Below the pieces are notes generated by a model, which worked only from the letters and a program-made list of their open reading frames with translations, made no database searches and was not told where the DNA came from. Positions 1 through 45,283 of a DNA stretch of 64,000 nucleotides are shown here, one piece after another; position 1 is the first letter of the stretch, and each line of letters starts with the position of its first letter. The DNA is from a virus (taxonomy: Duplodnaviria > Caudoviricetes). The position numbers and the translations under genes were made by a program. The stretch is from positions 1 through 64,000 of the IMG/VR virus record IMGVR_UViG_3300032280_000753. One strand, written 5' to 3'.

Positions 1-22
1 AGATAATCGTGTAGTTCGTCAT
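1..22 (-). CDS. 5' end of a gene running off the left edge (MTNYTII...)
   Basis: ATG at 22..20, preceded on the minus strand by TATTTA-5nt-ATG, the same arrangement seen before many other genes here. Confidence 0.4.
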
Positions 23-63
23 ATTGTTAAATATAGCAGACTTAAGTTCTAATTTAAACCAAT

Positions 64-98
64 AAAAAACCCCGGAAATCTGGGGCTTTCCGGGGTTT
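64..98 (-). terminator. Rho-independent terminator
   Basis: 12-bp inverted repeat aaaccccggaaa/tttccggggttt followed by a T-run on the minus strand, downstream of 131..445. Confidence 0.8.
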
Positions 99-130
99 CA
101 GTCTTTGGAGGAAGAAGGATAAATTAATTT

Positions 131-445
131 TCAATCAAGTAACGAAGGAGGGGTCGGCTCCGTATCAGCAAGCTTTTGTTCATTCTCTTGCATTTGCGTC
201 TCAGCTTGCTTGTTAAGACCTTCAACCATCTTGTTGTAGCTCTCAACATATTCTGGACAGAGAGTAAGATATCTCTTGTCCTCTGGATGAACCTCTACAA
301 CTATTGAACGTAAATGATCAATGATGTTGGTTCCAGTAAGCAGAGAAAGCTGAACCAGCTCTCTTACCATGCCGATGATGTTATCATCAACTTTATAAAG
401 CGTTCTGTTAGTTTCAGTTGTTGTTGTTTCTTCAGACATAACCAT
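131..445 (-). CDS. hypothetical protein
   Basis: 104 aa ORF with AAGGA upstream and a terminator downstream; no motif recognised. Confidence 0.7.
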   Translation of the reverse strand: MVMSEETTTTETNRTLYKVDDNIIGMVRELVQLSLLTGTNIIDHLRSIVVEVHPEDKRYLTLCPEYVESYNKMVEGLNKQAETQMQENEQKLADTEPTPPSLLD

Positions 446-558
446 TCCTTTAAGAAGAAGTTTAGGGAATGTAACCCAAAACGTATAAGAAAAAACAACA
501 GAAGATTAAAACCATTCCAGGGATGGGATCATATTCTTCAAACATTATTTGCCTCTTT

Positions 559-957
559 TCAACGCATATATTCAACGGCAAGATTTTCTTTAACAAGTGT
601 GTCATTGAGAGATACGGTTTCTTTTGTAAATCCTACCGGATATATTTCTACCAACCATCTACCATATTTTTCTTGTTTAAGTTCTTTGCCATTATGACTA
701 CGAATAATAATATCACCTGTAGGTGCATTATCTTTGAACCAATCTTCTAAACGAGCTTTTGTCTGTAAACCACGAAACAATTCTTCTTCATCTTTTGGAC
801 GTGATATCTCTGGAGCATTAATTCCCCAAAGACGAGCATGAACACTTTTTAAAAGACCAAAGCCAAGATCAATTAGAATATCAACAGTATCTCCGTCAAT
901 TACTCTATTGATCTTGGCTTTGTAGAAATAAACCAGATGTTCTGTTTCGGACAACAT
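559..957 (-). CDS. thermonuclease (SNase-like) family nuclease
   Basis: Staphylococcal-nuclease motifs RVIDGDTV, RLWGINAPE and EKYGRWL. Confidence 0.88.
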   Translation of the reverse strand: MLSETEHLVYFYKAKINRVIDGDTVDILIDLGFGLLKSVHARLWGINAPEISRPKDEEELFRGLQTKARLEDWFKDNAPTGDIIIRSHNGKELKQEKYGRWLVEIYPVGFTKETVSLNDTLVKENLAVEYMR

Positions 958-978
958 ACGGTTAAATATTAACCGTAT
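956..978 (-). promoter_or_regulatory. hairpin covering the nuclease start codon, with a TATTTA motif across the loop
   Basis: Perfect 10-bp inverted repeat atacggttaa-ata-ttaaccgtat; minus strand reads TATTTA-accgt-ATG. Confidence 0.65.
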
Positions 979-987
979 CTGATATTA

Positions 988-2079
988 TCACATTATTTGA
1001 GCAGCAATAAGGCAACCACGTGCGACGGCGTGCAACGGATCGGAGGCGTGTCTTACTTCCTTGAGAGGAACTGGGAATTCATTATCTTCAAGCTTTTGAG
1101 CAAACATACGAACGAAACCCTTAGCCTGTGTAGTTCCTCCCCCTACTACTACAGGTAGAGGATCTTTGAACTTGGGTAGATCCTTATGATCAGATAGGGC
1201 AGCGGCAAGTTGCTTGGTGGTATAATCAATAAGCCGCTCATAGTAAGAAGATACAGCAGCAAGAACTTGATTTTCATTTGGCTTGCCGATTGTAAATTCT
1301 CCACCTTCCTTTTCAGCTTGAACTACGCTATCAGTTTGACCAGTAGCTACAGCAGACATACGATCAATCCAATCGCCGCTCTTTGTGGTAGAGAAAGTCA
1401 ATACAGGTTCGCCATTAAGCATTACGCAGACGTTAACCATACCAGCGCCCCATGATAAGCATACGCCAGTATAATCGTCCTTCTCAAGCTCTGAATAACA
1501 AAGAGCTTCTGCTTCATTAATAGCTTTTGGAGCGTATCCGATATCAGTTAGAACCTTCTTAACAACGTCTTCGTGGTATCCAACGTCAAACTCGTCATCT
1601 TCCTGATCAATAGGTTGAGCAGGAATACAGAATACAATCTTTTCACCGGGTTCAGAAGGCTTACCAGCTACTTCCTTGAGAATATAGGATAGAACCCTGC
1701 GAGCATCCTTCTCTTTAGAAGATACAACACCCTTATACATGGGACGCTTGGCACTATCGTTACGTTCTACAGCCTTTTCAATAGCGTCCTTACCAAGAAT
1801 AACAAATGAACCATCAGCATCCTTAACGAAAATCTTCCCAGCAAGACCCTTTTCAATCATCTTTGTAGCGATTGGGGTTGCTGGCTTGATTACATAGAAT
1901 GCATCACGAAAATCTTTATATTCTACCGAACCTTCTTCTTGTTCAGAAGCCAACACAACAAATGATGTGCCAACGTCCAAACCCTTTCCTAATTTCGTCA
2001 TATTCTTATTCCTTTTTTCTTTTGTCTTTTTGCCCTGCATTATTTCCAACTCTTCTGTTGATAATATTTTAAATCCCAC
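988..2079 (-). CDS. actin-fold ATPase (MreB/MamK/volactin-like)
   Basis: Phosphate-1 GLDVGTS, RPMYKGVV, VFCIPA, connect-1 INEAEA, phosphate-2 SWGAGMVN, adenosine VVGGGTT, connect-2 AVARGC. Two possible starts, GTG 2079 and ATG 2001, each with an SD-like AGGA. Confidence 0.88.
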   Translation of the reverse strand: MGFKILSTEELEIMQGKKTKEKRNKNMTKLGKGLDVGTSFVVLASEQEEGSVEYKDFRDAFYVIKPATPIATKMIEKGLAGKIFVKDADGSFVILGKDAIEKAVERNDSAKRPMYKGVVSSKEKDARRVLSYILKEVAGKPSEPGEKIVFCIPAQPIDQEDDEFDVGYHEDVVKKVLTDIGYAPKAINEAEALCYSELEKDDYTGVCLSWGAGMVNVCVMLNGEPVLTFSTTKSGDWIDRMSAVATGQTDSVVQAEKEGGEFTIGKPNENQVLAAVSSYYERLIDYTTKQLAAALSDHKDLPKFKDPLPVVVGGGTTQAKGFVRMFAQKLEDNEFPVPLKEVRHASDPLHAVARGCLIAAQIM

Positions 2080-2082
2080 GAT

Positions 2083-2460
2083 TTAGTCCTCTTTAGACTT
2101 TTTTAATGAAGCAAGTTTATTGACATTAGCACTTAAGCTTTCATCTTTTGCTATTGTCGTATTACCGAGATCATCAAATTTCTTCTCAAGACTATCAGTT
2201 TTGACTTCTGTTATAAACTTGCTATCATCAATTTCAATCTTACGAATGCCTCCATATATAGGCTTTTGCTCTGCTGTTCTACTTAAAAAACTAACTGGCT
2301 TTTCTGCAACTGGAGATGGACTAATAGTTTGAACTACAGGCGTTTGAGTTATAGGATTATGAACCGTAACTGCAATAGGGGCAGGCATATTCATTCTTGA
2401 TATAATATAACCCAGACTAAAAACTATAAAGTAGCTGGCAACTATTAAAAACGTTTCCAT
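2083..2460 (-). CDS. membrane-anchored hypothetical protein
   Basis: N-terminal hydrophobic helix (FLIVASYFIVFSLGYII), Pro/Thr-rich linker, helical basic C-terminus; ends 3 bp before the actin gene. Confidence 0.75.
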   Translation of the reverse strand: METFLIVASYFIVFSLGYIISRMNMPAPIAVTVHNPITQTPVVQTISPSPVAEKPVSFLSRTAEQKPIYGGIRKIEIDDSKFITEVKTDSLEKKFDDLGNTTIAKDESLSANVNKLASLKKSKED

Positions 2461-2461
2461 A

Positions 2462-3148
2462 TCAAGTATTTGCCTTTGCCTTTTGTTCTCTCAAATACTT
2501 GCTATAGCAATCATTGTGAACAATAGTCTTACCGGCTTTTAGCTCTTCTTCCGGAATTGTGCCTTCTACCAACAACCCACAGAGCGCACAATTAGGCTTT
2601 TTTACTGGGGCGTCCTCTCCTTTTTTTTGGGAACTTTGTTCCGTTTCTGCCACAGATGGTGGAGCTACTGGCGCAGAAACAGGTGGAGGCGGGGGTGGAG
2701 ATGCTGGCAACACTTCCTTCTTTGTTCCTACGTGCTCTATTGCCTTCTGCACGCCCGATAGAGGCGCTGGGGTAACCGGAAGCACAGGAGCCGGTTGCTC
2801 TACGGGCTTAGTCTCAACAAGCTTTGGAAGAGGCGCTACAGGGGGAATAACTTGTTGCTCTGGCGTTTTCTTTCCAGCAAGCTTATCTTTGTGTAAACCT
2901 AACAATCCATATCCGATAATATCTCCATAAGGGCTTTCACCGAAGGCATCCTTATTCGTAGCAATACGCTTAAGCTTATCAAAGATACGAACTACACATA
3001 ACATATCGCCATATGCTTCTGGAGGGATACCGTTTGGATATAGTAGTCTTAGGAACTCTCCTGCTTGATCAAATGAATTTCCATAAGCCGCATTCTTTTC
3101 TTCTACAAGATTGCCAATTTGTTCCGCTAATTCTTTATATTTTCCCAT
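2462..3148 (-). CDS. DUF1599/Nmad1-like domain protein with Pro-rich linker and C-terminal Zn finger
   Basis: EEKNAAYGNSF...VRIFDKLKRI...DIIGYGLL fits nucleotide-modification-associated domain 1; C-terminal CALC...HNDC. Confidence 0.65.
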   Translation of the reverse strand: MGKYKELAEQIGNLVEEKNAAYGNSFDQAGEFLRLLYPNGIPPEAYGDMLCVVRIFDKLKRIATNKDAFGESPYGDIIGYGLLGLHKDKLAGKKTPEQQVIPPVAPLPKLVETKPVEQPAPVLPVTPAPLSGVQKAIEHVGTKKEVLPASPPPPPPVSAPVAPPSVAETEQSSQKKGEDAPVKKPNCALCGLLVEGTIPEEELKAGKTIVHNDCYSKYLREQKAKANT

Positions 3149-3206
3149 TTCTTCCTCTGTTGATTAGAAAGAAGCTTAACATATGCGAATATCATTTTAT
3201 ATACGC

Positions 3207-3242
3207 AAAAGAAAAAAGACAGGAGTTTAATCCTGTCTTTTT
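3207..3242. terminator. Rho-independent terminator (possibly bidirectional)
   Basis: aaaaagacagga-gtttaa-tcctgtcttttt with A/T runs on both sides. Confidence 0.75.
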
Positions 3243-3272
3243 AATAACGTTATATGAAAGATACGTTTTGTG

Positions 3273-3701
3273 TCAACCAATTCCGCTGTATCCTAAGCCT
3301 TTTAGACCATATTGAAGGATTTGGGCATCGGAGCCGCTGAATACATTAAGAGCACCAGTAAGAATATAGAATTCTTGTCTTGGAATTCCAGTAAGTCCAG
3401 CAACGACTTCATAATTTACAGTTCCTGCTTGAGAACGAATGAAGATATCAGTTACACGCAATCTGCCATTGTAAGAACCGCTTACCGGCAATGTAAAATA
3501 ATTGGTGCCATTAACACCGTTTTCCGTAAAGCCAACTCTTAAAATACCGGCAGTATTATTTTTTACCGTTAGTTCATTAGTTACAAATGGAAATTGAATG
3601 TTGAATGGAGAAGTGGTAGCTACAGATTGAGTTACATAAGGTAAACCACTTGCTTGATATTCCGCAGCGTTATTCGGACCGGTTTTATAATTGAATGCCA
3701 T
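3273..3701 (-). CDS. hypothetical beta-rich protein, probably virion-associated
   Basis: 142 aa, G/T/N/V-rich beta-strand pattern; TATTTA-6nt-ATG upstream. Confidence 0.65.
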   Translation of the reverse strand: MAFNYKTGPNNAAEYQASGLPYVTQSVATTSPFNIQFPFVTNELTVKNNTAGILRVGFTENGVNGTNYFTLPVSGSYNGRLRVTDIFIRSQAGTVNYEVVAGLTGIPRQEFYILTGALNVFSGSDAQILQYGLKGLGYSGIG

Positions 3702-3719
3702 ATCCGTTAAATATTAGGC

Positions 3720-4391
3720 TCATTCAAAAGGTTCTCTAATCTTTCCACTTTCATCAACCAAATTAAACGCTTTAAGCGTATGTTGGAATGGATTTCCTTC
3801 AATCGCAATTACCTGCTCAAGCATTTGTCTCGCAATATCCCTTATCTCTACCTGGGCATGAGTAGAATATCTCAAACCAAGGAAATGAGCAAATGAACGG
3901 AAGTTAAACATTACATCAGCCGTCAACTGAATACCATATGGCAGATATAGTCTGGCGCTCTCTTTTGCACGCTTACGAGATACGCCCTTGGCTACAAGAC
4001 GATTTAAACACTCATGGTAACTCTTAAGGCTACCTTCCATGTGTTCTACATAAAGATCAATTTCTGCATCATCCCAGTCTTGTGGAACGTAATATTTGTC
4101 GTCTTTAAGTTCCTTATAACGGGCACTCTCGCCATTTACTGAAACACCAATACGATGTTTGATAATATGGATATGTGAAGCTATATCGCTTGTTACAAGG
4201 AAATGTAGGCTGGACTTTTCAAATGGAGTTTCATGATGGTTTTCTGCAAGCATCTTAAGAAGAGCTGGCATTCTACCAAGCTTGGCTTCATCAATGTCAC
4301 GAACCGTTGAAGTCCAAGCAGACATTGCATGTTGCAAATCTCCACCATAATGTCCAAGTAGCTCTACAGAATTGTTATGTTGTTCTTTCAT
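3720..4391 (-). CDS. thyX: FAD-dependent thymidylate synthase
   Basis: HHETPFE, KHRIGVSVNGESARY (variant of RHRx7SxR), ARLYLP, NFRSFAHFLGLR, HAQVEIR. Start at 4391 overlaps the upstream stop (ATGA); the ORF track starts it at 4409. Confidence 0.93.
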   Translation of the reverse strand: MKEQHNNSVELLGHYGGDLQHAMSAWTSTVRDIDEAKLGRMPALLKMLAENHHETPFEKSSLHFLVTSDIASHIHIIKHRIGVSVNGESARYKELKDDKYYVPQDWDDAEIDLYVEHMEGSLKSYHECLNRLVAKGVSRKRAKESARLYLPYGIQLTADVMFNFRSFAHFLGLRYSTHAQVEIRDIARQMLEQVIAIEGNPFQHTLKAFNLVDESGKIREPFE

Positions 4392-4645
4392 ACGCTTTCT
4401 CCATCCCATTTATCGCAAGAAACATAAGGAAGCTTATCATCTTCAAGACTTGGTTTCATTTGCAGGACAAGATCATAACACTCTCCATCTTGACAATCAA
4501 CCTTGATGGAAACTTCTTTTTCTGACTTACCAGAAGAGATAAGTTGATTAATTCCTTTTTGTAACGCTTCTAAAGCTTCTCTTGTTCCAGATATACGTGC
4601 GGCTTCATGTGGTTGTGGTTGTGAATGAATATGAAGTGTGCTCAT
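4388..4645 (-). CDS. hypothetical protein
   Basis: 85 aa ORF that overlaps both neighbours by 4 bp. Confidence 0.65.
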   Translation of the reverse strand: MSTLHIHSQPQPHEAARISGTREALEALQKGINQLISSGKSEKEVSIKVDCQDGECYDLVLQMKPSLEDDKLPYVSCDKWDGESV

Positions 4646-5035: not shown

Positions 5036-5812
5036 TCAATGCGCTCTATGAGTTCTGTTCAATCCATATCTAAATATTGCATTAGCGATTTGACGACTTG
5101 GAATAAACAAAGATAAATGATGCATATTTCCAATATAAGAACTGGCTAAACCAATAACTCTACCATGTGAGTTTAGTAAAGGTCCACCAGAAAATCCGCC
5201 AACAAGTGGAATAGAAGCTTGTATTGCAACTAATTGTCCATTAGAAATAACATTCCGTGATATAATGCCATCCACTATAGACCAAACCAACTCTAATGGA
5301 TGTCCCATTAGATATACTCTTTGAGCTACTTGCAGATTACCAAGTTGCAATGTTAAGAATACATCAGAAGGAGCTGTTCCTTCTTGCAACTCTAATATTG
5401 CTACGTCATTACCTGGATCAACATACATAACTCTTGCTTCATTAAGAACATCATTTATAAAACGACGATTTAACATATCGATATCGCCATATCTTACAAA
5501 TTGAACTACATCTCCAACAGGATTTTGTCTTGTTGGAAGCTGAATAGTCATATCTCCTATGCGAACAACACGTAGTTGTTGCAAACAATGTAAAGCACTT
5601 ACCATTAATCTATCAGAAACAAAAAATCCGCTGCAAAACACCTGTGCGGTTTGATCAGCGGACGTTTCAGTTCTATTATGTATCAAAGCGACCGTCGCTC
5701 GAAGTGCCGTATCCAGCGGCGGTCCTTCCCTGTCTCTACGGACAGGGACACTACTATGGCAGCTATATAATAGCCCCACCATCACAATCAACGCAATTAA
5801 AATCTTTTTCAT
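5036..5812 (-). CDS. trypsin-like serine protease, probable lipoprotein
   Basis: Triad motifs SALHC, NDVAIL and GGFSGGPL; signal peptide with lipobox-like LLYSC. Confidence 0.85.
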   Translation of the reverse strand: MKKILIALIVMVGLLYSCHSSVPVRRDREGPPLDTALRATVALIHNRTETSADQTAQVFCSGFFVSDRLMVSALHCLQQLRVVRIGDMTIQLPTRQNPVGDVVQFVRYGDIDMLNRRFINDVLNEARVMYVDPGNDVAILELQEGTAPSDVFLTLQLGNLQVAQRVYLMGHPLELVWSIVDGIISRNVISNGQLVAIQASIPLVGGFSGGPLLNSHGRVIGLASSYIGNMHHLSLFIPSRQIANAIFRYGLNRTHRAH

Positions 5813-39171: not shown

Positions 39172-42156
39172 TCAACCTTGACCGAAGTTGCTTGGGTTGT
39201 TGATTACGAAGTCTACAGACAAGAACTCGAGGGTGCGTGTTGGTTGTAAGTAAATCTTACCACGGATCGTCTTGTTCTCAAAGTCTGCTTCAGTTGTTGT
39301 AGATGTATCGATACGAACAAGGAAACGATCAACACCACGTTGATTTTGAACTCTTTGTAGGATTGGGTTAACCAACTGTGAGAAACGTGCGAGCGTCTCT
39401 GGTAGAGTTTGTTCGAAGAGAATTCTGTTCGAAACTTGACGAACTTGTCTACGGATGGAGAGAAGTAGACGACGAACGTTTACACGATCAAGAGCTGATT
39501 GTTGTGCATACATTGTCTTCTGACCCCAGATTACCAATCCTTCAGATCCTGCAAAGGATACGATTGGATTGATATCAACTTCATAGAGATCATCCATGTT
39601 TGTTCTGGATAGTTGTAGAGTTGAACGCTCCGTTGTTGCAAGAGCGCCTCTTGCAAAGCCGGCTGGAGCAAACCATGGGAATGCTACCGAGTCATTGAAA
39701 GAATAAGCTCCAAGAGCAACAACGGAAGATGGAACTTCACGAAGAGTATTAGAGATGCCGTCTTGCATTATTACATCTGGGAAGTAACAAGCTCCGAAAG
39801 AGCTGTTAATGCCACGATCACGGAAATTAAGAGCAGTATATCTTACAGACTCAACCTGATTACTGCTTGTGATAAGCATATTAACTGTATCATATTTTTC
39901 TATATCCATGATATAGATGGCATCAAATCTACCTTCAGCGATTTGCAAAGCTCTATCCGTAATAACTGGATTACGAATACCAGGAACGATGAATGCTTGA
40001 ACATCAATTTCAGTTGCATCAGCTATCAAATCAAGTGCAGTATTGTATGCTATTACAGTTGGTCCCAATTGTAGAAGTCTTGAAGTGTAATCAAGTTCTT
40101 CATTGATTGCTTTGTTTGTCAAATAACGTTCATCATAGTTGAAGATATTAACACCATCAAATCCGCCTTGGATGAAAAGATTGAACTTGGCAAGTTGTCG
40201 TGTTGATGGGTCAGAAAGATCTGCTACTGTCAATGCTCTTGTTGTAACAGTTGGAGTTATCGCTCCATTTCTTACATAGCTCCAATCTACTACTTGCGTA
40301 GTATCAGCCAATCCAGTCGTTGAGTTTATTACGATCTCAACATTCTCAAGAGAGAAGCCGTTGTTATTGAAACGGTCAGCATCAAGAATTCCGTTTGCTG
40401 CCGTATCAAGAACTCCTTCATTGTCCATGACTACGAAGTTAACGCTGTCTTGTTGGAAGTCTGGGAAGTAAGCTGCAAAGCTTTCAACGCTGGTTTCACG
40501 AATTGTGCTTGCATTTGGTTGAAGAGCGTTTATTTTACGTTCAAATTGAACGCCCCAATATAGTCCCTTGTCTGCTACTGTATTTGGAGACTCGCCTCTA
40601 ACCAAGTTCTCACGTAATGGAACTGGGATTTGAACAGTCTTTTGGAATGGATTTGCGACTGTATAACCAGTTGGACCAACTGCGCTGAACGCCGCAAGAG
40701 GAGCAGAACCAGATGTTACTAAGTGGGCTGGACCACGGAAACCAACTGGGAGAGCCGTTGCATCAACATCCGATGCATCTACTGCATCAGCAACCTCTAC
40801 ACGAATGTATTTTGAGTTATTCGTATAGTTTCCAAGAGTGATTAATCTTGCATCTCCATCATTTGCATCAAAGTTATAGAAAGTATTATAATCACCAATA
40901 ACACGAGCAATATAGTTTGGAGATGTTGAATCAAGTGATAATCCACGATATGCTTCAAGAACAACTTTCTTTTTATCATTATCTGCAAAATCTCTTACAA
41001 GAAGATCAAATGTTCCATAAAGATTTACGTCAGAAAGGCTTGGCGCAATGTTTTCAATTGAGATTTTAACTTTATTGTTTGCATATATACCGTCATCCAA
41101 AGAGTGAATGCGGAAAAGATTAACTGGTTTGCCGCCGAACTTTTGAGATATAATCCATGGACTCTTTGGTGAACGATAACGGTCTTCAAAGTTTTCATAG
41201 TTTGGAGCCGTTGTTGTTCCAGTATTTCTTGCTTGAGAACCGGTAATAAGGAATGCAACGTTTTCATAACCAGATGTTCTAAGTGCCAATACTTCGGTAG
41301 AACCGCTAATAACGTTAGCTCCAGTTACAACTGCATATGATGGGTGGATAACCCAATCAGTTTGTAACATATAACCAGCCTGTTCAAGCTTAAGCGGATC
41401 TCTATTCATTATGTTTCCGAAATAATTTGGAGCATCAATATCAAAAGAAGCCGTTATAACATTTCTATACATCGGATCCGTATTGGTTTGACCGGATACG
41501 AACATGACGAATTCTTCAAGAGAGTTTCGAAGATTGACAGAGCCTGTTACGTGACCGGCTGGTGCTACGCCCCCGCCAAATGAAGAAGATAATAATAGTT
41601 GAGTTCCAGAGGCAGCAAACAATACACCACGAACAACTGGGACACCAGCAGCAGATAAACCTGAATCTGTAAATATCGAAGAACTAACAACGGGATTTAC
41701 ACCAAGCAATTCATATTGGCTCATGAATGCGCCAAGGAAATATGTTCTGCCGAGGGGATTACCAACAGTAGCATAAGGATTGTTACCAAGAGCGCCTGCC
41801 CCTTCCGGAAGTTGTTCGCCAACTACGTAGCCACCGCCAGCAACCCTTCCACGAGGAGAATTGACCTGCCGGGCGGCGCCGGAACCCGCACCAAGAACAC
41901 GGATAAACGTTGCAGCTTGAGCGTTTCTTAACCATTCAGAAACAGCTAATGGACCAACATATATGTCATTAGTTGTTTCTCCGAATGTTGCTATAAAATC
42001 GTTTGTAGTGGCTAAGGTTACAGGAACGAAAGCTGGACCAGCGATTGCCGTGCCGATTATACCTGCTGGTATACCGGATGGTTGTATTGCTGTTGGTCCT
42101 GTTAGATCGATTGTTCTGGCTGAAACACCGGCTGATTTGAATGATATCTGTGTCAT
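39172..42156 (-). CDS. tail sheath protein, paralog 2 (gp18-like)
   Basis: SAGVSARTIDLT, GPAFVP, PWFAPAGFARG, INPI, WGQKT, RVNVRRLL, IYLQPTRTLEF. Confidence 0.92.
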   Translation of the reverse strand: MTQISFKSAGVSARTIDLTGPTAIQPSGIPAGIIGTAIAGPAFVPVTLATTNDFIATFGETTNDIYVGPLAVSEWLRNAQAATFIRVLGAGSGAARQVNSPRGRVAGGGYVVGEQLPEGAGALGNNPYATVGNPLGRTYFLGAFMSQYELLGVNPVVSSSIFTDSGLSAAGVPVVRGVLFAASGTQLLLSSSFGGGVAPAGHVTGSVNLRNSLEEFVMFVSGQTNTDPMYRNVITASFDIDAPNYFGNIMNRDPLKLEQAGYMLQTDWVIHPSYAVVTGANVISGSTEVLALRTSGYENVAFLITGSQARNTGTTTAPNYENFEDRYRSPKSPWIISQKFGGKPVNLFRIHSLDDGIYANNKVKISIENIAPSLSDVNLYGTFDLLVRDFADNDKKKVVLEAYRGLSLDSTSPNYIARVIGDYNTFYNFDANDGDARLITLGNYTNNSKYIRVEVADAVDASDVDATALPVGFRGPAHLVTSGSAPLAAFSAVGPTGYTVANPFQKTVQIPVPLRENLVRGESPNTVADKGLYWGVQFERKINALQPNASTIRETSVESFAAYFPDFQQDSVNFVVMDNEGVLDTAANGILDADRFNNNGFSLENVEIVINSTTGLADTTQVVDWSYVRNGAITPTVTTRALTVADLSDPSTRQLAKFNLFIQGGFDGVNIFNYDERYLTNKAINEELDYTSRLLQLGPTVIAYNTALDLIADATEIDVQAFIVPGIRNPVITDRALQIAEGRFDAIYIMDIEKYDTVNMLITSSNQVESVRYTALNFRDRGINSSFGACYFPDVIMQDGISNTLREVPSSVVALGAYSFNDSVAFPWFAPAGFARGALATTERSTLQLSRTNMDDLYEVDINPIVSFAGSEGLVIWGQKTMYAQQSALDRVNVRRLLLSIRRQVRQVSNRILFEQTLPETLARFSQLVNPILQRVQNQRGVDRFLVRIDTSTTTEADFENKTIRGKIYLQPTRTLEFLSVDFVINNPSNFGQG

Positions 42157-42205: not shown

Positions 42206-45200
42206 TCAGCCGAATTGAACGCCTGCTCTGGTGATAATAAAGTCAACTGCGATAAACTCAACTGCCTTAACTGGTAGTAAGTAAATCTTAGCATTCATTC
42301 TATTGTTCTCACGATCAAGTTCTGTGTTATTAGTTGCATCACATACAACCTTGAACTGTCTCAAACCACCTCTGGATTGGACCAAAGCTAATACTGGAGA
42401 AACTTTAGCAACGAAATCTTGATAAAGAGCTGGGGTTAGTTGCTCCCAGATTAATCTATTTCCAATATCGATAACTTGACGTTGAACATCCATAACCATG
42501 CGCTGAACGTTAATGCTCTCAAGAGAAGACTTCTCAGCATTAAGCGTCTTTTGTGCAAAGATTACGTAACCTTCATTTGGGAACTTGACGATTGGATTAA
42601 TTCTTACTTGATATAGCTTCTCACGTTCATTCTGATTTACTCTTGTTCTTGTAAGAGATACGAAGTTGAGTGCAGCACGGTTAAATCCGGCTGGAGCGAA
42701 CCATGGATAAGCGACCTTATCATTATAAGCAATTGCAGCAAGAGAAGCAACAGAAGATGGAACCGTAATTCTTTTCCCGCTTGCTGGATCTGTCATGACA
42801 ACATCTGGGAAATATGCGGCAACGAAATCATTGTTTATTGCACGGCTGTCAAATTGATCTGCCGTATTTTGAACGTTAATGTAACTTCCAGTTCCAGTTG
42901 TTGTTCCATCAAATATTCTATCACCATCAGAGTTGTAATTTGGAATATCCATAGAATATAGAGCTAAACCAAATCCAGCAGCGGCATCAGAAGCATAATC
43001 AGTTACAAATGGTTCACGTTGACCTGGGATTGCCAATAGATTTATATTTGAAGCAATTGGATCTGTAATAATAGTTGTAGCTACTTTGTAAGAATATATT
43101 TGGTTATTTGCAAATCCAACTCCATTTTGATTGAAATTAAATCCTGGGCTATCATAATTCGCATTTGCACCGCCATAACCGCCAATGCCATTTTCTGTTG
43201 AAGTAGAACGATCATCAAAATTTTGTGCGTGTGGGTCAAGAAGATTTACACCGTCAAATCCACCATACATGAATACTGTGTATTTGGCAAAGTTATTAAA
43301 TCTATTGAATTGGATTGGTTGCGTGCCGCTATGAACAAGACTTGCAAAAGTAAGTTGACTGCCAGAAACACAACTTCCGGTTACTGTATAGTCAGAAGGA
43401 TTAACTACTCCATTACGAACATATACAGCATTCTTCATTTGAGTTCCAACAGATGATGTAAGGAATGCAAATCCAGTTGTTCCAAGAGCTACTCTTGCAA
43501 GAGTAAACTTATTATCATTAAAATCGTCCGTTGAAGAACCGGTCACAAGAACGTCAAGCTTTTCAATGCCAGCAAATCTTGTGAAGGATGGAATGATGTT
43601 GTTAAGCTCACCGTTAATATTAGTATTAAGAACGTTATTGTTGTTACGTTCAAACTTAACGCCCCAATATAGTCTTCCATCTGTAATCTCTTGTGCCCCT
43701 GGTAGAGTTACAAGACCACTTCCAGTAACAGCGCCTCGTGTTACTCTGAAACGGTATGGGATTGGTGGAACTATTGCACCATTAAGACCAAACGTATTAG
43801 CAGAACCGCTTCCTGCAAGACGAATGTCTGTTGCCGTTGAAGAACTTACATCTGTTAATAATGGATTTGTATTTAATAGTTGCGGACCTCGGAAACCGAA
43901 TGGTAGCACGGTTCCAGGAACCATCTTTTGTTCTACCATCTCATTCATAACTACACGAATGTAGTTTGACATATTTGGATATTTGCCAGAACGAATGATG
44001 CGTCGATCATTTGGATCTTCTACGTCAAAGTTATAATATGCCTTTGCATCGCCAATAACTTTGGCGATATATTTGTCACTTTCTGGATCAAGGGTAAGAT
44101 CATTGAATTGCTCAATAACAGCTTGATTATAATCCGTATCTCCAAATTGACGAACCGTTAATGTGAATGAACCATATGGATTTGTTGGATTGGTAGAGGC
44201 AATAATATTTTGAATAGAGATTTTAATCTTATCGTTAGAGTAAACGCCATCATCAATGGCTTCAATGTGGAATAGATTATATTCTGTTGAACCATATGGT
44301 TGAGAAATGAAGCTTGGTGTTTTTGGCGTTTTAAAACGTGTGTCAAAACGTCCAAAGAGCTCAATGAATCGAGTTGAAGACAAACCTGATGTAGCAGAAG
44401 TATTGCCAGAACCAGAAGCGATTAGAACGCCAGATACCGTATTTTGAATGACTGTTGCAACTTCATCGTCTACTGCAAAATCTGCATAAACATAATGTTG
44501 TTCTTGTTCAAACTTTGCTGGATCTGTGTTAAGAAGCTTTGCAAAGTAGAGATCGGATGTTGGATTGAAGGAAGCAGATAGAATTCTAATCCCGGCTAAT
44601 CCATCTGCGCTTCCAAAGGTTGAACCAAGAGAAGTAGAGATTACAATCTTGAAATATGGTTCTTCACTGTCTGCTGGAGTAGAATAAACGGCAACGTCAT
44701 CAAGAAGTGGGTTAAACGTTTCGCCAGAACCAGACATGATCATAATCCGGGAACCAGATGCTGCAAATATTACACCACGAATAAGATTAACAAATCCAGA
44801 ACCATCGGCGGCGTCGGCAAAGCTATCATTATCAGTAAACATTGGGAAACCAATGCCTTGATTTGCTTGTAGTTGATGGCGTGCTGCCAAGAACTGCACC
44901 GCACCATGCGCCCGAGCACCTGTATTTGTTGCAACCGTGCCGCTTAATTTAAATCCGGCGCTTTTAACAATGCCAGCCGTATCTGTTGCAGATATATCAG
45001 CAGCAGTTACATTTGCGCCAGCTCCCAATACTCTTACGAATGTAAGCGCATTCCGGTTTTGTAAAAATTTATCTGCCGCATATGGGGCTGGTAACTTTGG
45101 ATCATAGCCACCAAACTTCGTTACGAAATCATTAAATGATCCAAGTGTGTATGGAACGAACGCCGGTCCTTTTTGGACTGCGCCAATTAAACCTGCTGGT

Positions 45201-45283
45201 ATACCAACAGGTCCGGCGGTTCGTGCGGTTAGATCGATTTCACGATCAAAAAAGCCTGGGAAATTAAAAAGTTGTTGCGGCAT
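42206..45283 (-). CDS. tail sheath protein, paralog 1 (gp18-like)
   Basis: FPGFFDREIDLT, GPAFVP, PWFAPAGFNR, INPIV, AQKTL, IYLLPVKAVEFI. Confidence 0.92.
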   Translation of the reverse strand: MPQQLFNFPGFFDREIDLTARTAGPVGIPAGLIGAVQKGPAFVPYTLGSFNDFVTKFGGYDPKLPAPYAADKFLQNRNALTFVRVLGAGANVTAADISATDTAGIVKSAGFKLSGTVATNTGARAHGAVQFLAARHQLQANQGIGFPMFTDNDSFADAADGSGFVNLIRGVIFAASGSRIMIMSGSGETFNPLLDDVAVYSTPADSEEPYFKIVISTSLGSTFGSADGLAGIRILSASFNPTSDLYFAKLLNTDPAKFEQEQHYVYADFAVDDEVATVIQNTVSGVLIASGSGNTSATSGLSSTRFIELFGRFDTRFKTPKTPSFISQPYGSTEYNLFHIEAIDDGVYSNDKIKISIQNIIASTNPTNPYGSFTLTVRQFGDTDYNQAVIEQFNDLTLDPESDKYIAKVIGDAKAYYNFDVEDPNDRRIIRSGKYPNMSNYIRVVMNEMVEQKMVPGTVLPFGFRGPQLLNTNPLLTDVSSSTATDIRLAGSGSANTFGLNGAIVPPIPYRFRVTRGAVTGSGLVTLPGAQEITDGRLYWGVKFERNNNNVLNTNINGELNNIIPSFTRFAGIEKLDVLVTGSSTDDFNDNKFTLARVALGTTGFAFLTSSVGTQMKNAVYVRNGVVNPSDYTVTGSCVSGSQLTFASLVHSGTQPIQFNRFNNFAKYTVFMYGGFDGVNLLDPHAQNFDDRSTSTENGIGGYGGANANYDSPGFNFNQNGVGFANNQIYSYKVATTIITDPIASNINLLAIPGQREPFVTDYASDAAAGFGLALYSMDIPNYNSDGDRIFDGTTTGTGSYINVQNTADQFDSRAINNDFVAAYFPDVVMTDPASGKRITVPSSVASLAAIAYNDKVAYPWFAPAGFNRAALNFVSLTRTRVNQNEREKLYQVRINPIVKFPNEGYVIFAQKTLNAEKSSLESINVQRMVMDVQRQVIDIGNRLIWEQLTPALYQDFVAKVSPVLALVQSRGGLRQFKVVCDATNNTELDRENNRMNAKIYLLPVKAVEFIAVDFIITRAGVQFG

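Follow-up and report, generated by a model that had tools for sequence, protein, structure and literature searches.

A volactin-family actin gene and its linked membrane-protein gene in large tailed phages: a candidate two-gene cytoskeletal module

Introduction

Does a large tailed phage encode an actin of its own, and could that actin be held at the host membrane by the product of the neighbouring gene? This question is raised by two adjacent genes in a 64,000-nt stretch of the IMG/VR record IMGVR_UViG_3300032280_000753 (hereafter the window, meaning the whole stretch of DNA that was analysed), which belongs to a phage that has a contractile tail and carries replication genes of its own. To our knowledge, a single home-made cytoskeleton is known from large lytic phages, namely the tubulin PhuZ. 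Our search of the full-text literature found no paper on a phage module of a volactin-type actin and a membrane partner, and actin was not mentioned in the jumbo-phage reviews that were checked for it. Phage actins such as AlpC are known already, as is volactin with its membrane neighbour. In this study, we propose, with a probability of roughly 70%, that the two genes form a phage cytoskeletal module in which membrane-tethered actin filaments organise phage replication.

Results

Gene layout and flanking elements

Both open reading frames were recovered on the minus strand with the extents that the first-pass annotation had given them (988-2079, 363 aa, and 2083-2460, 125 aa). The features of the locus are listed below.

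67 to 98, no strand: perfect 12-bp GC-rich hairpin (inverted repeat I19), downstream of 131-445, the last gene of the run
559 to 957, minus strand: SNase-like endonuclease (PF00565; phrog_452, E 5.7e-30), 30 nt downstream of the actin gene
988 to 2079, minus strand: Volactin-family actin, 363 aa from the GTG at 2079; the alternative ATG at 2001 gives 337 aa
2083 to 2460, minus strand: predicted membrane-anchored partner, 125 aa, with an N-terminal TM helix at about residues 3-22, a Pro/Thr-rich linker, and a conserved strand motif and tail
2462 to 3148, minus strand: p228, first gene of the tight run, with an N-terminal phrog_1485-like domain (E 6e-07), a Pro-rich linker and a C-terminal Cys/His cluster
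3213 to 3242, minus strand: terminator-like hairpin with a 12-bp stem and a T run, closing the gene that precedes the p228-partner-actin unit

On the minus strand, the genes follow each other in the order p228, partner, actin, with intergenic gaps of 1 and 3 nt, and the partner and the actin share a frame in the window with only the TAA and one codon between them. The 124-nt gap after the hairpin at 3213-3242 probably holds the promoter of this unit. It had been claimed that a tightly packed three-gene run ends with the actin gene. The tight packing was borne out by the gaps, and the actin gene as the end of the run was not, as the SNase-like gene follows 30 nt on. No terminator-like site lies in that 30-nt gap; the SNase-like gene is probably in the same transcript as the actin, and the hairpin at 67-98 is a candidate terminator of the unit. 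The three-gene run is also a unit of local extent: ThyX, p228, the SNase-like gene and the remaining neighbours were recognisable only in the nearest relatives (L001-L009), the synteny of p228 and the SNase-like gene being limited to this close group, and p228 is outside the conserved module. The C-terminus of p228 carries a CALCG...HNDC cluster that resembles a small zinc-binding motif, while the family phrog_1485 has no assigned function.

The start of the actin is ambiguous, as the GTG at 2079 and the ATG at 2001 are both possible. The GTG is preceded at 7 nt by a good ribosome-binding site (AGAGGA), and the ATG, which encodes M27, by the site AAGGA. Nearly all relatives begin with MAKGLDVGT, which corresponds to M27 of the window protein, and the 337-aa form matches the relatives of 334 aa. 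The subclade of the window (L001-L008) alone keeps an in-frame N-terminal extension of 20-26 aa. This extension is not amphipathic; it opens with MGFK, has a basic cluster at its end and differs in length in steps of whole codons.

Family assignment and nucleotide-binding site of the actin

The actin matched the Pfam family Volactin (PF25216) with 213.5 bits (E 6.8e-63; cut-off 35), and the match covered residues 32-360 on positions 3-321 of the 321-position profile, that is, the whole model. The matches to other actin families stayed below their cut-offs: MreB/Mbl (PF06723) gave 21.4 bits over a 63-residue stretch only (cut-off 27), MamK (NF040964) gave 22 bits (cut-off 400), and salactin gave 22.9 bits with PF25229 (cut-off 27.1) and 31.8 bits with NF053533 (cut-off 400). 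None of the FtsA, PilM and EutJ Pfam families matched at E<=0.1, and there was no match to a PHROG family. Judged by the family models, ORF 988-2079 is a genuine full-length Volactin-family actin and not salactin or MreB, and it is probably not ParM, FtsA or PilM either. This agreed with the earlier suggestion that the protein is volactin-like rather than ParM-like.

All the motifs on which that suggestion was based were recovered in the translation of 988-2079, namely KGLDVGT, RPMYKGVVSSKEK, PAQPID, GYHED, YSEL, SWGAGMVNVC, GDWID, YYERLIDY and VARG. In an alignment of 62 diverse relatives (A2), the nucleotide-binding residues D35, G37, T38, E189, G211, G213, G314, G315 and G355 were invariant and T316 was invariant or nearly so; the phosphate 1, phosphate 2, adenosine and connect motifs were intact. 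In most actins the phosphate-2 motif opens with Asp, whereas throughout this family it opens with Ser (S209, in SWGAG). The helical hydrophobic moment gave no membrane-binding amphipathic helix in the actin.

Predicted fold and phylogeny

The AlphaFold2 model of the actin, which was built on the 62 diverse relatives, reached a pLDDT of 94.3 and a pTM of 0.89. Its closest solved folds were the MamK filament 5ljv (Z 27.9, rmsd 2.9 over 294 residues), the BeeR filament 8r2n (Z 27.7) and MreB 4cze (Z 26.7), followed by F-actin at about 25.5; the identity to MamK, BeeR and MreB was 17-21%. FtsA and EutJ were also present among the fold matches, the FtsA alignment (Z 25.2) being shorter than that of MamK, at 257 versus 294 residues. 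The model thus confidently predicts a four-subdomain actin fold that is closest to the filament formers MamK, BeeR and MreB. A profile search of PDB sequences gave a similar order, with MamK at 1e-16, BeeR at 4.6e-12, MreB at 1e-9, FtsA at 1e-5 and PilM at 0.02, and no ParM chain was listed at E<=1. The search of the PDB with the single actin sequence gave no match.

A tree of phage, bacterial and metagenomic Volactin members was rooted on a bacterial MreB outgroup. A branch of 3.72 changes per site (support 100) lay between the volactin family and bacterial MreB. The window protein fell in a tight, short-branched phage clade with P0122 as its sister (support 99), and these were nested together in a larger clade of metagenomic proteins (support 96). 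The bacterial chromosomal members fell in other clades.

The predicted membrane partner

The N-terminal hydrophobic stretch of the partner had a 19-residue Kyte-Doolittle mean of 2.01 at residue 3, and AlphaFold2 placed a helix at residues 2-22. A Pro/Thr-rich linker of variable length and sequence follows, and the protein ends in SLSANVNKLASLKKSKED. Two motifs are conserved in this family, KIxIDDxKF(V/I)TxVxTD and then the tail LG..T...D..LSxxVxKLAxLKK. Column conservation was 0.70 in the tail, 0.59 in the strand motif, 0.44 in the TM helix and 0.29 in the linker, and the invariant residues were G17, I77, D106, L116 and K120 (alignment A1). There is no positive residue before the helix and one just after it, which fits an N-out, C-in topology. 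From this distribution of charges, the conserved region of the partner would lie in the cytoplasm, on the side of the actin.

The partner family comprises 166 clusters, all of them unnamed and none with a Pfam domain. The partner itself gave no match to Pfam (E<=0.1), PHROG or NCBIfam, and a DNA-binding (ParR-like) domain was likewise not matched in the Pfam scan. The ESM Atlas returned viral hypothetical proteins only, with a best score of 0.86, which is below the trustworthy level.

The first-pass annotation had described this protein as an N-terminal TM helix, a Pro/Thr linker and a short C-terminal helix. The former two parts were confirmed, and the C-terminal helix did not appear in the model. 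In a tethered co-fold of the window's own partner-actin read-through (P0391, alignment A5), in which the TAA was read as Q and the partner had no alignment, the actin part was folded well, while residues 50-130 of the partner had a pLDDT <50, formed no helix and stayed undocked. The helical hydrophobic moment of the tail was modest (0.25-0.29). A weak search for natural partner-actin fusions or longer forms of the partner found none. Elsewhere in the 64-kb window there was no further copy of the partner tail, the next best match having an E of 0.67.

Linkage of the two genes across relatives

The linkage was scored with an HMM of the conserved C-terminal part of the partner. Among the 77 loci with enough upstream sequence, the partner was directly upstream of the actin in 74; in the other three it was still upstream, two of them having an extra gene in between and one a gap of 257 nt. 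With three truncated loci included, the partner was upstream of the actin in 80 of 80 related viral loci. The expectation that the TM gene is kept beside the actin in related phages was therefore confirmed, and the comparison of gene order strongly supports a link between the actin gene and the membrane-protein gene. The sole case of a gene inserted into the pair is a 276-aa ORF at 4178-5008 in L021 and L024, the N-terminus of which looks by eye like a DNA methyltransferase (DPPF motif).

The link weakens with distance. On another phage-like contig (with rIIB and HNH genes), a 54%-identical actin has the partner upstream (HMM E 2.8e-10). Where the actin identity drops to 46%, the protein encoded upstream resembles the partner by eye in its motifs and is without a TM helix, and at 33-36% identity the upstream genes are unrelated by HMM.

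Volactin-family genes were also found in bacteria, in a class that was reached through an acidic homologue. There they occurred in 31 of the 56 species genomes, alongside true MreB, with 1-6 genes per genome and often as a tandem of a short and a long paralogue (L096-L124, genomes G007-G061). The long paralogue has an N-terminal domain containing YWDFFFE, and the gene upstream of the short one often ends in SALDRLKALRGG or MADLLGGID. The tails SALDRLKALRGG, VERLKQIKQ and MGALKAVRKK of upstream genes in the bacterial loci and the distant huge phages recall the tail of the phage partner by eye only, as the partner-tail HMM gave no significant match in either group.

Spread, conservation and genomic context

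A word-index search found 1713 homologous clusters of the actin, mostly of 334 aa, and an exhaustive search of the 50% representatives found 1007 actin clusters, 300 of them below 1e-30. In IMG/VR, at least 152 contigs of up to 461 kb carry close relatives of the actin, one of them being a complete 298-kb genome with direct terminal repeats. Near-identical contigs occur in lake metagenomes. Among the deposited phage genomes, relatives were confined to two distant ones (33-36% identity), which come from huge phages of 485 and 595 kb. The NCBI bin names of the homologues were mutually inconsistent.

The proteins of the window were compared with those of four relatives of 190-300 kb. The identity was 79-82% for the actin, 59-62% for the major capsid protein, 49-51% for the helicase, 48-51% for the tail sheath, 47-52% for the portal and about 30-36% for the partner. 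The actin is thus conserved to an extreme degree, and an identity above that of the capsid fits a protein that is constrained on many surfaces, like the subunits of filaments. In addition, one phage homologue of 695 aa (P0121, 58% identical) has an intein of about 340 aa inside the invariant TTKSGDW motif of the actin, with Cys at its start and HN at its end, followed by Cys. Inteins are typical of essential phage genes.

The gene content of the window (tail sheath, major head protein, portal, ribonucleotide reductase, DnaB-type helicase, exonuclease and ThyX) agreed with the proposed phage origin and indicated a large tailed phage; the window holds no tRNA genes. The module lies among ThyX, ribonucleotide reductase (RNR), DnaB and exonuclease genes in the window. 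The complete 298-kb relative has gp32 and RecA-like genes followed directly by the series dUTPase, partner, actin, 5'-3' exonuclease, DnaB and RNR; tubulin, tyrosine integrase and ParB are all absent from this genome. In a 211-kb relative, the module is located between an IMPDH/GMP-reductase gene and a PHP-domain gene. The gene order varies, yet the company of the module is always replication and nucleotide metabolism in the window and these two distant relatives.

Some further observations were made on these genomes. The window has two adjacent ORFs of about 1000 aa each at 39172-42156 and 42206-45283, the first of which matches tail-sheath PHROG families, and related genomes have two or three tandem copies that match it at 36-51% identity. 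At 5036-5812, the window encodes a trypsin-like serine protease whose N-terminal signal is of the lipoprotein type (…LLYSC). Two trypsin-like genes and a subtilisin-like one (Peptidase_S8) also lie just downstream of the actin on L089, another phage contig with such a gene. In G004, the record of locus L055, the portal match at 257987-260902 lies in two pieces within one open frame of 1048 aa, a sign of an intein or some other insertion. RecA-like and RNR genes close to the actin in this genome look split as well. The PHP-domain gene of L017 has an intein splicing domain.

Discussion

Relation to known systems

Volactin (VolA, HVO_2015) of Haloferax volcanii has been reported to form dynamic filaments whose tips touch the membrane, and to function in the transition from rods to disks (PMC10869688). 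It belongs to the same Pfam family (PF25216) as the phage actin (213.5 bits), a likeness by family model, and as a control, H. volcanii was found to hold a Volactin match over the cut-off. Volactin works in an archaeal cell, whereas the phage actin is viral and encoded among replication genes. Volactin also has a membrane protein as a neighbour, the CdpA-like HVO_2016, with four TM segments (PMC10869688; PMC12126565). The phage partner is set apart from it, by description, with one predicted TM segment, a length of 100-125 aa and no Pfam match. In a pull-down with CdpA, volactin was enriched with a log2FC of 2.5 and a p of 0.06 (PMC12126565).

The nearest functional precedent, by analogy, appears to be AlpC/AlpA of the prophage CGP3 of Corynebacterium glutamicum, in which a phage actin-like protein and its dedicated adaptor are needed for efficient viral DNA replication (PMC4446434). 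AlpA ties the filaments to phage DNA, whereas the phage partner described here is predicted to be membrane-bound. Moreover, AlpC comes from a temperate prophage and the volactin-like actin occurs in large virulent-type phages, the two being compared by description.

The PhuZ/TubZ spindles of the nucleus-forming jumbo phages are dynamic polymers, encoded by the phage, that position the replication compartment (PMC8314001; PMC13282480). The likeness here is that of a large phage with a predicted polymer, but PhuZ and TubZ are of the tubulin superfamily and the protein of this study is an actin. We know of no membrane adaptor of PhuZ.

MamK, BeeR and MreB all form filaments, and two of them have partners associated with the membrane, RodZ in the case of MreB and MamJ/MamY in that of MamK. 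They have the same four subdomains as the model of the phage actin, although the phage protein is below the cut-offs of the MamK and MreB models and its family is on its own long branch. With ParM-ParR the module shares the idea that a C-terminal peptide of the neighbour's product docks on the actin filament, a docking that we propose for the phage partner. However, ParMRC has a DNA-binding ParR adaptor and a repeated centromere, of which the phage module showed neither in the Pfam scan of the partner and the repeat search of 1-4500; it also has the opposite gene order and gave no sequence match to ParM in the PDB profile search at E<=1.

Proposed mechanism

From the family, the fold and the intact nucleotide-binding residues, we infer that the actin binds ATP and, during infection, most likely forms filaments in the host cell. 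The N-terminal helix of the partner would insert in the host inner membrane and leave the C-terminal part in the cytoplasm. The conserved end of the partner, with the strand motif KIxIDD... and the tail ...VxKLAxLKK, is a likely actin-binding element, by which the partner might tether or nucleate filaments at the membrane. The module would most likely organise phage DNA replication, or the site of replication or assembly, in space; such a role is proposed because the two genes are probably co-transcribed with genes of replication and nucleotide metabolism. With actin in place of tubulin, the module may correspond to the PhuZ spindle of other jumbo phages, or else to AlpC/AlpA of CGP3.

A broader version of this proposal must be regarded as tentative, and we consider it somewhat doubtful. 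It holds that hundreds of abundant aquatic large phages build their own membrane-anchored actin cytoskeleton and depend on it for replication, the tail of the partner being the docking peptide of the filament. The same docking of a tail to actin would then operate in the bacterial and haloarchaeal volactin operons, and an ancient actin-adaptor system would have been taken over by phages as the counterpart of the PhuZ spindle.

Alternative explanations

The filaments might act on the host rather than on replication. A membrane-tethered MreB-like actin could rewire or compete with the cell-wall and shape machinery, and so enlarge or reshape the cell to allow a large burst, or block its division. 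This would suit a predicted membrane-anchored partner (hydropathy and AlphaFold2 helix) and a fold whose closest relatives include MreB, a protein that operates at the membrane together with RodZ, itself a TM protein (2wus), and volactin itself acts in cell-shape transitions (PMC10869688). However, the MreB Pfam score of the actin (21.4) is below the cut-off of 27, a branch of 3.7 changes per site lies between its family and MreB, and the actin is without a membrane-binding amphipathic helix. The module is located among replication genes, not among genes of lysis or host takeover. We therefore consider an action on the host unlikely; the mechanism would be the same one, aimed at another target. 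A more different possibility is that the protein does not polymerise and is a chaperone-like or regulatory actin-fold ATPase, such as FtsA, PilM or EutJ, which docks on a membrane protein. PilM indeed docks in this way, on a terminal peptide of PilN, which is a TM protein (5eou, among the PDB matches), and FtsA and EutJ are among the fold matches. Nevertheless, FtsA was aligned over fewer residues than MamK (257 versus 294), no Pfam family of the three matched at E<=0.1, and the founding member of the volactin family polymerises in vivo (PMC10869688). An identity of about 80%, which exceeds that of the capsid, is in keeping with filament contacts on many sides of the protein, and a non-polymerising role is thus very unlikely in our estimate.

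Partition of the phage genome is the least probable of these explanations, and we give it hardly any weight. It supposes that the phage persists as an episome in pseudolysogeny or a carrier state and that its genome is partitioned in a ParMRC-like manner, with the partner as the adaptor. Actin-like partition systems are reported from plasmid-prophages (PMC6669507), and the dynamics of volactin have been compared to those of ParM (PMC10869688). The partner, however, has no ParR-like DNA-binding domain by Pfam match, and no array of centromere-like repeats was found in 1-4500. These scans agreed with the first-pass annotation, which had seen neither a ParR-like gene nor centromere repeats near the actin. 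The gene order is the reverse of parM-parR, ParM chains were missing from the PDB profile matches at E<=1, and the complete 298-kb relative has terminal repeats with no integrase and no ParB. We therefore prefer the reading in which membrane-tethered actin filaments organise phage replication.

Significance

The actin described here is better conserved than the capsid and strictly tied to a predicted membrane anchor, and the uncultured aquatic phages that carry it form a very large group (over 1700 protein clusters, at least 152 viral contigs). If filaments and docking are confirmed, phages would have a second means, based on actin, of organising the cell they infect. The poorly understood volactin family would also gain a simple model system of two proteins, in which an interaction between a short peptide and actin would be directly testable in vitro.
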